Assembly (NCBI GenBank): GCA_020056635.1
Contig: JAGVHI010000024.1
Span: forward strand, 2,317-66,316
Origin: an archaeon
GTDB taxonomy: Archaea; Micrarchaeota; Micrarchaeia; Anstonellales; Anstonellaceae
Direction of reading: 5' to 3'
DNA: 64,000 bases
In this document: piece by piece, positions 42,505 to 45,090 of the stretch
Layout of the letters: every line of letters begins with the position of its first letter
How positions within the stretch are numbered: position 1 is the first letter of the stretch
Notes under the pieces: generated by a model
What the model saw: only the letters and a program-made list of their open reading frames with translations
What the model was told of the DNA's origin: nothing
Database searches by the model: none
Made by a program: the position numbers and the translations under genes

Positions 42505-42942
42505 TCAAACAGTTTCTGGCGGGAGCTGCATCCCGAAATGAAGCCCTATATCCTTGAGATTCTCAGTTGTTTCGATTAGCGCCTTTCTGCCGAAGTTCCT
42601 GAAACGCAGCATATCAGGCTCTGTTTTCCGCACGAGATCGCCAATCGTCCTAATTCGGGCTTCCTTGAGGCAGTTGGCTGTCCGCACAGTCCACTCGAGC
42701 GCCTCAATTGGAGCCCTGAGCTTTTCCTCCAGCGAAGTGTCTGCCCCAATGGCATGTGGTTTGGCGAACTGAGGCACCAGAATTGTGCCTTTAGCAATTC
42801 CATTATCCAAATCACGCAACCCTTCCGGACCTATTTTCCTTGCCATCCAGAGCATAATAGCCCTAGCCCGTCCATCCGGCACGGTATCGATCGCAGTTCT
42901 TAGATTGGCCAGCGGCCTTGCATTCCCGTTCATTTTTTTCAT
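42505..42942 (-). CDS. Protein with C-terminal bacterial RNA polymerase alpha-CTD-like helix-hairpin-helix domain
   Basis: LEWTVRTANCLKEARIRTIGDLVRKTEPDMLRFRNFGRKALIETTENLKDIGLHFGMQL aligns by eye with E. coli alpha-CTD (LELTVRSANCLK...IGDLVQRTE..LL...NLGKKSLTEI). GAGGTG lies 6 nt upstream of the ATG. Confidence 0.6.
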   Translation of the reverse strand: MKKMNGNARPLANLRTAIDTVPDGRARAIMLWMARKIGPEGLRDLDNGIAKGTILVPQFAKPHAIGADTSLEEKLRAPIEALEWTVRTANCLKEARIRTIGDLVRKTEPDMLRFRNFGRKALIETTENLKDIGLHFGMQLPPETV

Positions 42943-42956
42943 ATTTTTCACCTCGT

Positions 42957-44009
42957 TTAGTACAATCCCAATTCCACCTTCGGAATTCCCCGCTTGCGCA
43001 TGAGCTTTAATAGCAAATCCGGCTCCTTGCAAAGCTCGCGCAGAACACCAAGCGCATTCTCCTGCACTGCCTCATCCCCCTCCCGGACTGCATCGTGGTA
43101 GAGGTAAGCTGCAAGCGCAGCCAAGTCATTCGCGCCTGTAAAAATGCAGGAGGTGTTTTCCGCAAGCCATGATAGCGGGTTTGGGGCGGCCTCAAGCCCC
43201 TCGCGCATCCGCCCTAATTCTATTGCCGCTTGCTTCCTTGCGGCATCGAAATAGGCATCGTTCCTTGGAAGGTTTTTTTCCCCTGCCGTAAATTCGTAGA
43301 GGAAATTCCAGAATATTGGAATCCCCCGCCCGCCATCGCGCCCCAGCTCTTCCGCGAACTCTCGTGCGCACTCAAGGTTCCCTTCGCGCCCGATTTCCCA
43401 TTCAAGCGGAAACGTGATAGTGCCGGTTGCGGCAAACTCCAGATCGTTGCCAACGAAAATGCGCATGATTTTCGCATGGAAAGTGGAGCACGCTATGATT
43501 GCGTCCATGTCAATCGCCCGGAAAGCCTCTGGCCAGAGTGCCGGGTAAACCGGGTCCTTCTCAAGATGCATAGTAACATGGTCCGGCTCCCATCCAAGAT
43601 TCCGCAGGTCCGCGATGTTGCAGTGCTCCAAATGCCTCCGCCCGGATACCAGTTCGACCAGGAGGCGCTCGCCTGCGAAGCGGAGGTAAGGATTTTCCTC
43701 AAGCGCCATTTCTTTGATTGCATTGAGCGCCCCCTCATATTGGGTGCCCCCGAGCTTGCGCGTAAGCCGTTCAACGAATTCCCGAATCCCGGCAGGCACT
43801 TTTCGCTCTCCGGTAATGACCCCGCACATGCGCTCGTGCTCCGTGCAAAGGATGCGCGCCCGCTCTGCAGCATCCACCATCGCAAGTGAGTGGTTGCGCC
43901 GCATAATTTCGGCAGTTTTGGGCTCCACGCCAAGCCATTGCACGTCCCTCCATGGGGTATTGCGCGCGGTTTTCTGCGTTTCCCCGTTGCCATTGATGTT
44001 TTGCTGCAT
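42957..44009 (-). CDS. Hypothetical protein (middle gene of radical-SAM operon)
   Basis: 350 aa from ATG 44009, 4 nt after the radical-SAM stop. No recognisable motif. Helical C-terminal part. Confidence 0.5.
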   Translation of the reverse strand: MQQNINGNGETQKTARNTPWRDVQWLGVEPKTAEIMRRNHSLAMVDAAERARILCTEHERMCGVITGERKVPAGIREFVERLTRKLGGTQYEGALNAIKEMALEENPYLRFAGERLLVELVSGRRHLEHCNIADLRNLGWEPDHVTMHLEKDPVYPALWPEAFRAIDMDAIIACSTFHAKIMRIFVGNDLEFAATGTITFPLEWEIGREGNLECAREFAEELGRDGGRGIPIFWNFLYEFTAGEKNLPRNDAYFDAARKQAAIELGRMREGLEAAPNPLSWLAENTSCIFTGANDLAALAAYLYHDAVREGDEAVQENALGVLRELCKEPDLLLKLMRKRGIPKVELGLY

Positions 44010-44013
44010 GCCC

Positions 44014-45090
44014 TCACCCCCCAACTGCAATCTTAATCTCGTCTATTCCAGCTTCCCTGGCCAGCGGCACGTAATACTGCCCCCATTTCCTGCCGTTCTC
44101 CAGTATTTCCACAATCCCGCCCGGAGCAAGCCTGACATTGCCCATTATGCGGCCGCTCTCCAGCCCGGGCTGCACGTTCCCGAAAACATCAAGATGGAAT
44201 GCGGCCATGCGCTTGTCCGTTTCTGCGTAAGCAAGCGCGGGCATTCCCTGCGCAAATCCCCAAGTGAGCCCGAATTCCTGCTCGTCAATTCCGCGGAGGG
44301 TTGCAAATATCTCGTCTACGCGCCCTTCTTGAATTACAAAATTCCCGTTGAGCTTCGCCCCCCTGCCTATGGGCGCAAGCCTCTCGAAATACGGGACAAT
44401 GCCAAGCATCCTTGCGAACCGGAGCAGGGTTGGAAGCTCTGTTTCGTTCGGCTTTGCAATTATCACATCAATCCCAAGGTTCGGCCCGCGCATCCCGGCA
44501 TCGAGCAAATTCATCAGCCCCTCGCGCGCGTTTTTCCATGCGCCCCTCACCCCCACGAGCGTATCGTGCGCCTGCGGCTCAAGCGCGTAGAGTTTTGTGA
44601 TTACAGTTGTGCACACGCCTGCAAGCCATTTTGCTATTTCCTTATTCACCAGAGTTCCGTTCGTGAAAAGCACGAACTGCAGCCCTTCGCCCCTCACGAA
44701 TTGGGCAAGCTCCCAGAGGTTCGCATCCAGCAATGGCTCGCCCCGTCCCGCCACTGCAACGGTTTCAATTCCAGCTTCCTTTCCTGCCAGAATCGCGCCC
44801 TTCCACTCTGCAATCCTGTTCATTGCGCATGCGCAATCTTTTTTCTCAACAAATGTTGCATCCGGATAGCAGGGAGGGCAGCGCAAGTTGCACGCGTCCT
44901 TTGTTTCAAGGAATAGCATTTTGAATTGCGGAGGCGTGCCATTCGCAGTTTTCTTGGCATTTTGGCGCAGGTTCTCCACGCACACTTCGCGCGTGAAGAA
45001 ATACCCTGCAAGGGTTGGCGCCTGCCGAAGCCCAGTGGCTGCAGCGCGCTGCGCGTTAGTCTCAACAATCCGTATTGCCTTGTGTTCCAT
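44014..45090 (-). CDS. Radical SAM enzyme (unassigned subfamily)
   Basis: CNLRCPPC (CxxxCxxC) about 65 aa from the N-terminus, followed by a GRGEPLL glycine-rich SAM motif. No C-terminal SPASM Cys cluster seen. Confidence 0.75.
   Translation of the reverse strand: MEHKAIRIVETNAQRAAATGLRQAPTLAGYFFTREVCVENLRQNAKKTANGTPPQFKMLFLETKDACNLRCPPCYPDATFVEKKDCACAMNRIAEWKGAILAGKEAGIETVAVAGRGEPLLDANLWELAQFVRGEGLQFVLFTNGTLVNKEIAKWLAGVCTTVITKLYALEPQAHDTLVGVRGAWKNAREGLMNLLDAGMRGPNLGIDVIIAKPNETELPTLLRFARMLGIVPYFERLAPIGRGAKLNGNFVIQEGRVDEIFATLRGIDEQEFGLTWGFAQGMPALAYAETDKRMAAFHLDVFGNVQPGLESGRIMGNVRLAPGGIVEILENGRKWGQYYVPLAREAGIDEIKIAVGG

Follow-up and report, generated by a model that had tools for sequence, protein, structure and literature searches.

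A micrarchaeal operon pairs a divergent radical SAM enzyme with a helical partner and a tagged accessory protein beside an Lrp-type regulator

Introduction

Radical S-adenosylmethionine (SAM) enzymes of the SPASM/twitch group, which include SkfB, SuiB, anSME, PqqE and MoaA as well as ScmF, NirJ2 and AhbD, are built on a partial TIM barrel with a CX3CX2C motif and a GGE-type SAM motif. Behind the barrel, a SPASM domain carries two auxiliary Fe-S clusters and a twitch domain carries one (PMC10470005). We describe here a three-gene operon, with a divergently transcribed regulator of the Lrp/AsnC family, in a 64-kb stretch of archaeal DNA (contig JAGVHI010000024.1 of assembly GCA_020056635.1; hereafter the window). 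Gene 1 encodes a radical SAM enzyme whose best sequence and fold matches lie in the SPASM/twitch group; it shares the barrel and both motifs, and its C-terminal beta-hairpin/helix region aligns with the first half of a SPASM domain. It differs from the group in lacking the auxiliary cysteines and the SPASM family match, in an N-terminal extension, in scores below the family cut-offs, and in the dedicated 300-aa helical domain, encoded by gene 2, that follows it or is fused to it.

Two other kinds of radical SAM enzyme invite comparison. BlsE and DesII, which act on nucleoside or nucleotide-sugar substrates, are likewise not known to need auxiliary clusters. BlsE is the sole sequence match of gene 1 in the PDB, and the two rank second and third by fold, but they are only 15-20% identical to gene 1, no sugar or nucleotide biosynthesis context is found at the operon, and BlsE and DesII have neither a helical partner domain nor an Lrp linkage. 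Maturases of ribosomally synthesized and post-translationally modified peptides (RiPPs), such as PqqE/PqqD, MftC/MftB and SkfB, resemble the present system in combining a radical SAM enzyme with a separate or fused non-catalytic partner and in downstream proteins that have a leader-like N-terminus in common. The partner here, however, is a 300-aa all-alpha protein rather than a winged-helix RiPP recognition element (RRE) of ~85 aa, there are no auxiliary clusters, and the would-be precursors are folded DNA-binding proteins of 119-388 aa that are missing from some loci.

The regulator resembles archaeal FL11/Ptr2/LysM-type Lrp proteins in its helix-turn-helix (HTH) and RAM domains, its divergent target operon and its palindromic A/T-rich sites near TATA boxes; the target operon itself is new. 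Our preferred reading, to which we give a probability of roughly 60%, is that the locus encodes an Lrp-gated, two-part radical SAM holoenzyme with one exchangeable accessory protein, in an operon restricted to the Micrarchaeota/DPANN lineage. Gene fusion, a conserved operator region and a shared N-terminal tag are the strongest features of the locus, and none of them had been noted in the initial annotation.

Results

Gene fusion links the enzyme to its partner

Homologues of genes 1 and 2 occur in about ten other loci (numbered L001 onwards), drawn from 'Candidatus Micrarchaeota' and unclassified archaeal metagenome-assembled genomes (MAGs). The two genes co-occur or are fused in at least eight loci. 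In at least five, they make a single protein of 660-720 aa: P0028 (675 aa) and P0029 (719 aa) consist of an N-terminal radical SAM part, 51-54% identical to gene 1, and a C-terminal part 36-38% identical to gene 2, and further fusions are present in L012 (662 aa, a Micrarchaeota MAG), L014 (truncated) and L016 (702 aa). The genes are separate yet adjacent in the window, L002/L003 and L010. This Rosetta-stone pattern of fusion and adjacency is the strongest functional evidence available, and it indicates that the 350-aa protein belongs to the enzyme, as a subunit or as a domain, and that the two genes act as one functional unit.

The partner scores above threshold with no family, in line with the initial annotation, which had seen no recognizable motif in it. 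A word-indexed search returned one relative (95% identity), and an exhaustive HMMER scan of 1.84 billion representatives returned eight matches, all tied to this radical SAM enzyme and including the fusions P0028 and P0029. An AlphaFold2 model from the seven-sequence family alignment is all-alpha, with 18 helices (predicted local distance difference test, pLDDT, 83.7; predicted template-modelling score, pTM, 0.85). Foldseek found no relative of this model in the PDB (best E 0.07, template-modelling score ~0.2) or in BFVD, and the family profile matched nothing below E 0.05 among PDB sequences. The partner domain is thus predicted to have a novel all-helical fold, with no sequence or fold relative found in these databases. 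Its family conserves the motifs G-x-R-H-x3-C-[NDE], P-x-FW-x3-YE-x-T-x-G-x-K and EN-x2-C-x-F-x-GANDL, invariant polar residues that would fit a binding or catalytic pocket better than a passive scaffold. Against its L001 homologue, the gene has a ratio of nonsynonymous to synonymous divergence (dN/dS) of 0.16, indicating purifying selection.

Several candidate relatives of the partner were rejected. Foldseek matches to ARM, 14-3-3 and ankyrin proteins are noise (E at least 0.07, score ~0.2). TY-Chap3 (PF22552) reaches 20.8 bits against a threshold of 27, matches two of the seven family members, which are a near-identical pair, and requires an alpha+beta fold where the model is all-alpha. Remote homology of the family to a 522-aa downstream protein of L004 or a 363-aa open reading frame (ORF) of L001 has an hhalign probability below 1%.

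The radical SAM enzyme has lost its auxiliary-cluster cysteines

Gene 1 matches a single Pfam family, PF04055 (40.4 bits, threshold 29.5), and its CX3CX2C motif, CNLRCPPC (residues 67-74, 44869-44892), is invariant in alignments A2 and A3; both place it in the radical SAM superfamily. Its SAM motif is GEPLL, and a family-specific N-terminal extension of 55 aa reads ETN..RA..GL..AP.L.GYFF. The initial annotation was right about the radical SAM motif and wrong in seeing no SPASM tail. PF13186 (SPASM) gives no match and there is no cysteine after residue 160, but in alignment A2 the stretch behind the barrel lines up with the N-terminal half of the SPASM domain in the nearest SPASM homologues (25-29% identity), leaving a cysteine-free remnant (Table 1). 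Every cluster-binding cysteine of the homologues P0011, P0013 and P0014 is replaced, by K, A, G or L, in the gene 1 family, which keeps the backbone remnant alone and so falls outside SPASM/twitch proper, as defined by auxiliary-cluster cysteines. The relatives in L017 and L018 (37% identity), which have the family N-terminal extension, retain a Cys-rich tail. Because the cysteines are replaced in alignment A2 while L017 and L018 are still Cys-rich, gene 1 reads as a SPASM/twitch derivative minus its auxiliary clusters, and by its sequence it forms a new branch of that group from which all auxiliary-cluster cysteines have been lost. The public protein for gene 1 (P0002) has 269 aa, 75% of the ORF, and its start would fall after CX3CX2C; comparison with homologues indicates that the long form is correct.

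Named NCBIfam families (ScmF, NirJ2, AhbD, AhbC, MoaA, viperin and PqqE) score 25-73 bits against gene 1, with cut-offs of 180-725; the best scores are 47-73 bits, where 284-650 would be required. MoaA (TIGR02666) gives 47 bits against 284, and viperin (NF038283) gives 32.8 bits against 180 over the N-terminal 100 residues only; the PADLOC pVip profile gives 38 bits over positions 8-96 of 257, well short of full length. On these scores the enzyme belongs to none of the named radical SAM subfamilies, which agrees with the first impression that it was not obviously MoaA or viperin. It has no firm place in a known housekeeping subfamily, and genes 1 and 2 recur elsewhere.

The only PDB sequence match of gene 1 is BlsE (7vob, 27 bits). 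In an AlphaFold2 model of the natural fusion P0028, the individual domains are predicted with confidence (pLDDT 79), the pTM of the whole fusion is 0.50, and the radical SAM half is closest by fold to SkfB, BlsE and DesII, in that order, with SuiB, MoaA and viperin also among the near matches (E 1e-8 to 1e-5). Matches at these values do not separate peptide from small-molecule substrates. They do bear on a rival reading in which the enzyme tailors a small molecule (a cofactor, a lipid or acyl chain, or a nucleotide-sugar), the Lrp protein is a metabolite sensor and gene 3 encodes a physically unlinked transcription factor. The prominence of BlsE and DesII favours it, as does the setting of the nearest SPASM-bearing relatives of gene 1 (28-36% identity), which lie in bacterial clusters with acyl carrier protein (ACP), AMP-ligase, acyltransferase, ketosynthase and ApeI/ApeP-like genes. 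The usual ligands of Lrp-family regulators are amino acids, and some loci have the core but no tagged protein, both of which suit a small-molecule pathway. No other biosynthetic genes, however, are conserved beside the pair, whose flanks are housekeeping genes particular to each locus; the structural matches are all about equally weak; and the tag that third genes share with one middle-domain protein, described below, argues for a physical link. We regard a small-molecule pathway of this kind as rather unlikely.

The regulator and its control region are deeply conserved

As the initial annotation had it, an Lrp/AsnC gene diverges from the operon across a 148-bp AT-rich region. Its product matches PF01037 (57.6 bits) and PF13412 (45.3 bits), the HTH plus RAM architecture of Lrp/AsnC proteins, and its best PDB match is PH1519/FL11 (2cyy, 66.9 bits), with E. 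coli Lrp and AsnC regulators also matched. In nine other loci, the regulator that diverges from the radical SAM gene shares 64-94% identity with it. Ten close loci with upstream DNA have the Lrp gene in this divergent position despite differing outer flanks: EF-1alpha on the left and AP-endonuclease on the right in the window and L002, ScpB/ScpA on the right in L004 and L008 (with HisRS/thioredoxin on the left in L004), PGM and PRPP synthase in L012, and a methyltransferase and BacA in L024. The Lrp gene is likewise divergent in L001, which has kept just a remnant of the radical SAM gene and has the AP-endonuclease gene as a flank, and in L010, L013 and L014.

The more distant L017 and L018 have an Lrp-like neighbour as well. 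The L017 features at 590-1528 (minus strand) and 2624-4438 (plus strand) comprise a tandem double Lrp and, as the next gene, a second radical SAM protein (CX3CX2C at about residue 297). At L018 1481-2033 (plus strand), the Lrp linkage is kept and the next gene encodes a class I methyltransferase.

About 100 bp of the control region is conserved as DNA, with 28 invariant columns across nine loci (alignment A6), and L024 is a tenth locus with the same pattern. The radical SAM proteins of these loci are only ~50% identical, and in keeping its operator/promoter block across such divergence the system differs from the archaeal Lrp regulators named above. The Lrp gene with this DNA is the most conserved feature of the ten loci. 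Box 1, the perfect palindrome in front of the Lrp start codon, is a putative autoregulatory operator, and its position at 45209-45222 is the only perfect match in the window. An A/T-rich, TATA-like block stands at the position of the Lrp element in all loci. Box 2 is conserved as TTTTTGAGCAnnTAnnC...TTTTTnGGA and is a putative Lrp site controlling the operon; the columns of the operon TATA box are invariant or nearly so in alignment A6. Single-mismatch relatives of box 1 at 211-224 and 20590-20603 both lie within ORFs and are probably chance.

AhbA/B and NirD/L/G/H are Lrp/AsnC-like proteins, and this raises another reading, that the locus is a degenerate alternative-heme or heme d1 pair in which the 'Lrp' is an AhbA/AhbB/NirDL-like siroheme decarboxylase and the radical SAM protein a divergent AhbC/AhbD/NirJ. 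The top NCBIfam matches of gene 1 do include NirJ2, AhbD, AhbC, NirJ1 and NirJ (54-73 bits), and the tandem double Lrp-like protein of L017 scores 25.8 bits, sub-threshold, with NirdL-like_HTH. Against the AhbC, AhbD and NirJ models, however, gene 1 gives 50-73 bits where the cut-offs are 500-650, a 7-10-fold shortfall, its auxiliary-cluster cysteines are missing, and there are no tetrapyrrole genes nearby. The window Lrp carries PF01037 and reaches just 16.3 bits with NirdL-like_HTH (threshold 27); its PDB matches are FL11, Lrp and AsnC regulators, with no AhbA, AhbB or NirDL structure among them, and palindromic operators suit a DNA-binding regulator. The heme reading is largely refuted, and we give it next to no weight.

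The third gene joins a shared tag to an exchangeable module

The product of gene 3 ends in a bacterial-type DNA-binding helix-hairpin-helix domain, as was first proposed: residues 72-130 match PF03118, the C-terminal domain of the RNA polymerase alpha subunit (alpha-CTD), with 69.7 bits (threshold 23.8). Its database relatives are solely bacterial RpoA C-termini, 53-64% identical over residues 72-141. The alignment with RpoA CTD structures reaches into the interdomain linker, and the segments VR(S/T)ANCLK and NFG(R/K)K are conserved; VR(T)ANCLK and NFGRK correspond to the DNA-contact regions of bacterial alpha-CTD. The protein is not a full RpoA, since residues 68-141 alone match (NF003513, 87 bits against a cut-off of 302) and the alpha N-terminal domains (PF01193 and PF01000) are absent. 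An unrelated N-terminus, with a 45-aa tag, stands in place of the assembly domain, in a host whose archaeal RNA polymerase has no alpha-CTD. Matches of the alpha-CTD by tblastn in 'phage' records proved to be ordinary bacterial rpoA genes or unannotated short records and were set aside.

The alpha-CTD gene has an orthologue in no other locus, which marks the third position as a variable cassette. The tag recurs. It is found in L012, in a 160-aa protein 3' of the fusion (BLASTP E 5e-6) whose C-terminus is, in place of an alpha-CTD, a sigma-70 region-4-like HTH (Sigma70_r4, 25 bits, about at threshold); in L001, in a 119-aa protein (E 7e-5) with a C-terminus of unknown domain; and in two proteins of L002, a 211-aa protein with an unknown C-terminus and the middle-domain protein itself. 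A hidden Markov model from four tags recovers the fifth at E 1e-13, and no further tags appear in six-frame translations of the window and all fetched loci. All tag-bearing loci (the window, L001, L002 and L012) possess the middle domain; the tag is absent from L010 and L024, where the middle domain is present, and from L004 and L008, members of a sister clade without it. The third position therefore holds a system-specific tag with an exchangeable module, in the window one captured from the 3' end of a bacterial rpoA. Directly 3' of the tagged sigma-4-like gene in L012, a nucleotidyltransferase gene (NTP_transf_2/Polbeta) occupies 10005-10898 on the plus strand.

A constant N-terminal tag before a variable C-terminus recalls the leader and core of RiPP precursors, and the operon might accordingly be a protein-modification system in which the helical domain reads the tag as a leader and the enzyme modifies the tag, or the DNA-binding domain attached to it, altering what these small DNA-binding proteins do. 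Two tagged paralogues in L002, the confinement of tags to loci with the middle domain, and the structural proximity of the radical SAM domain to the peptide maturase SkfB, with SuiB also high, are all in keeping with this. Weighing against it, L010 and L024 have the enzyme and middle genes and ample downstream DNA, yet no tagged protein; the domain supposed to recognize the tag itself carries one in L002; and the enzyme lacks the auxiliary clusters that peptide cross-linking maturases typically have. None of the three proteins has a Pfam or NCBIfam match to a PqqD-like RRE, and there is no adjacent precursor gene: the short precursor ORFs for which the initial annotation proposed a search have no room, as the intergenic gaps are 4, 14 and 18 nt and the 148 bp upstream is conserved promoter DNA. 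We consider protein modification of this kind unlikely.

Mosaic evolution and sparse distribution

Compared with L001, the window is 93% identical in DNA from 44198 to 42940, a segment that takes in the 3'-terminal 59 codons of gene 1 together with the whole middle gene and ends two bases before the ATG of gene 3 (42942). In L001, the conserved promoter is followed not by radical SAM codons 1-300 but by an unrelated 363-aa ORF (583-1674, plus strand) with no Pfam or PHROG family; a 79-aa radical SAM remnant follows (1671-1910, plus strand), and downstream lies a different tagged gene. The middle gene has a synonymous divergence (dS) from L001 of 0.18, whereas Lrp has 1.06 and the AP-endonuclease gene is saturated, and because of this discrepancy we conclude that the middle-gene segment has recently moved between lineages. 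Against L002 the pattern is reversed, with the radical SAM protein 71% identical and the middle protein 39%.

The system is rare. Some 15 distinct radical SAM sequences of this family were found among 5.8 billion clusters, and its pattern was matched in two of 185,579 GTDB species representatives. Conservation of the gene neighbourhood extends to genes 1 and 2 and the Lrp gene, which recur, while the exact trio is unique to the window.

The earlier suggestion of horizontal acquisition stands in part. The higher GC content on which it was based is real and modest (0.557 and 0.564 for two operon genes, z 1.6-1.8), but as a sign of transfer it fails: GC at third codon positions, judged relative to the window's own genes, lies within one standard deviation (z 0.4-0.8), and the alpha-CTD gene is average in composition for the window, so that a foreign origin of the segment on GC grounds is rejected. 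What does show transfer is the dS discrepancy among related archaea, together with the alpha-CTD domain, the one part of bacterial origin.

Such exchange might point to a conflict or defence module, with a DNA-binding subunit that senses or targets invading nucleic acid and aims a radical SAM effector at it, or with an antiviral molecule as its product. Between relatives with 93% identical middle-gene DNA, the third gene changes precisely at the start codon, L001 has other sequence in place of the 5' part of the radical SAM gene, the middle segment shows recent lateral exchange between far more diverged flanks, the distribution is sporadic, and the enzyme has its weak pVip matches. A defence-type system was indeed among the first proposals for the operon, and it has not fared well: PADLOC-DB v2 returned only generic radical SAM matches, all to gene 1, neither it nor PHROGs matched gene 2 or gene 3, and gene 1 falls far short of the viperin cut-off. 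The neighbours are EF-1alpha, S10, GAPDH and an endonuclease IV-like protein, with no defence, integrase or transposase genes, and an Lrp operator kept so tightly over deep divergence points to physiological control more than to constitutive immunity. We think a defence role very unlikely.

In L008, a 481-aa protein encoded 3' of the sister-clade radical SAM gene (2037-3482, plus strand) matches no Pfam or PHROG family; by eye it has three HTH-like repeats and a LAGLIDADG-like segment, IVGFLDGSIG, and it may be a homing-endonuclease-like insert.

Gene calls and genomic surroundings

Features of the locus are collected in Table 1. That the three minus-strand genes, separated by 4 nt (44010-44013) and 14 nt (42943-42956), are a real operon was already proposed from their spacing, and ORF positions, homologues and the dN/dS of gene 2 bear this out. 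Ribosome-binding motifs had been noted before two of the genes; a GGTGA-type motif lies 5-6 nt 5' of all three ATGs. T-tracts generally serve archaeal transcription termination, and those directly 3' of gene 3 are the probable terminator of the operon. Scans for sigma-70-type promoters and intrinsic terminators gave chance-level results, as expected in an archaeon.

Table 1. Positions in the window of the operon, its regulator and their sequence elements
Feature	Position	Strand	Description
Gene 1, radical SAM enzyme	44014-45090	minus	358 aa
Cysteine-free SPASM/twitch remnant	44056-44232	minus	about residues 287-345 of gene 1; from alignment with SPASM homologues
Gene 2, partner protein	42957-44009	minus	350 aa
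Gene 3, accessory cassette protein	42505-42942	minus	145 aa; N-terminal tag, linker and alpha-CTD
N-terminal tag	42793-42921	minus	residues 8-50; R..L.NLR..ID..P...R..M.WMAR.IGPE.L
Alpha-CTD helix-hairpin-helix DNA-binding domain	42520-42729	minus	residues 72-141; bacterial origin
Oligo-T tracts, probable terminator	42485-42496	minus	TTTTTTCTTTTT; directly 3' of gene 3 stop codon
Bidirectional control region	45091-45238	both	148 bp, 31% GC (if Lrp starts at ATG 45239)
Operon TATA box	45141-45150	minus	TTTAAATAAA; 50-60 bp 5' of ATG 45090
Box 2, putative Lrp site	45168-45181		TGAGCATCTATTCG; imperfect copy of box 1 with T-tract flanks, ~17 bp 5' of operon TATA
TATA-like element of Lrp	45194-45203	plus	ATTTATATAG; ~37 bp 5' of ATG; read from sequence
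Box 1, putative autoregulatory operator	45209-45222		GGAATATATATTCC; perfect palindrome between Lrp TATA and Lrp start codon; all 10 loci
Lrp/AsnC (FL11/PH1519-type) gene	45239-45682	plus	divergent from operon; alternative start TTG 45227

The window is part of the chromosome of a Micrarchaeota-like (DPANN) archaeon; its neighbouring genes for aEF-1alpha, ribosomal protein S10, GAPDH, thioredoxin reductase and an endonuclease-IV-like TIM-barrel protein establish it as archaeal. A 400-aa ORF antisense to the radical SAM and middle genes (43714-44916, plus strand) is a shadow ORF of the GC-rich coding strand, which a naive longest-ORF picker favours over the real genes. Elsewhere in the window, Rfam reports a 96-nt tRNA at 36308-36403 (plus strand, 51.4 bits) that ARAGORN does not, probably an archaeal tRNA with an intron. 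Between the S10 gene and a tRNA-Ser, a gene at 47509-49095 (plus strand) encodes a 528-aa Cys-rich protein with internal repeats of the C-x-x-C/CF-x-C type and no Pfam family.

Discussion

Literature searches for this combination of genes found nothing relevant, and the initial annotation's view that it matches no known pathway holds, since no defence, RiPP, MoaA, viperin or heme assignment fits. We picture the proposed two-part holoenzyme and its accessory protein as follows. A regulator of the FL11 type quite likely binds two sites, box 1, where it would overlap the promoter of its own gene, and box 2, a short way 5' of the TATA box of the operon, and such binding would couple expression of the operon to an amino-acid or metabolite signal. 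The radical SAM barrel, with its single CX3CX2C cluster and no auxiliary cluster, would make one holoenzyme with the helical domain; the link between the two is seen in the fusions, and the chemistry would be hydrogen abstraction by a 5'-deoxyadenosyl radical independent of any auxiliary cluster. The invariant Arg, His, Cys, Asn, Asp, Tyr, Glu and Lys residues of the helical domain may form a substrate-binding or co-catalytic pocket that replaces the lost SPASM half. Several loci have the core but no tagged protein, and we therefore favour a substrate that is not encoded next door; candidates would be a small molecule, a lipid-like or nucleotide-linked molecule, or a housekeeping macromolecule. 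The third protein, on balance, would attach to the core through its 45-aa tag and bring a DNA-binding module, here the captured alpha-CTD. It would serve as a regulator or tether bound to DNA locally, or else be a client that undergoes modification.

Some observations sit uneasily with this picture of a regulated two-part holoenzyme. The sister clade (L004 8187-9593, L008 519-1964, L013 325-1776) has the radical SAM enzyme without the middle domain; its enzymes instead carry a beta-rich C-terminal extension of ~115 aa and are followed by unrelated large downstream proteins. Conversely, the middle and tagged genes of L001 are intact although radical SAM codons 1-300 have been replaced, and for this reason the middle protein may act without this enzyme. 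The packing of the two domains in the model of the P0028 fusion is not fixed, given its pTM. One exception to the Lrp linkage is the short contig of P0029, on which no Lrp gene lies within the 935 bp upstream. Finally, the roles proposed for the two boxes, autorepression of Lrp through box 1 and control of the operon through box 2, are likely in our view but are read from position and symmetry.

A bolder extension of the same idea, quite improbable in our judgement, would make the locus an undescribed DPANN three-component system, consisting of a cluster-poor radical SAM enzyme with its partner, a portable tag, and interchangeable DNA-binding domains taken from the bacterial transcription machinery, namely the alpha-CTD and sigma region 4. 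Tethered in this way, the enzyme would act on the DNA itself or on targets bound to it; alternatively, the tagged proteins would be what it modifies. Cassette exchange would diversify the targets.

The practical impact of the operon is modest for now. Its significance lies in what it adds to three areas. The enzyme appears to represent a new radical SAM subfamily in which the auxiliary-cluster domain has decayed and a helical domain without fold relatives stands in its place, a natural experiment in functional change among SPASM/twitch enzymes. The regulator, with two operators and two TATA boxes, offers a testable archaeal regulatory unit conserved over deep divergence, from DPANN archaea, in which regulation is almost unstudied. 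In the third gene, an archaeon has put a bacterial alpha-CTD to new use, and a relative has done likewise with a sigma-4-like HTH; in both, the borrowed module plugs in behind the common tag, which makes this an unusual instance of protein-domain capture across the domains of life combined with cassette exchange. With its novel partner fold, conserved regulatory module and borrowed bacterial DNA-binding domain, the locus is a rare variant within the radical SAM world.

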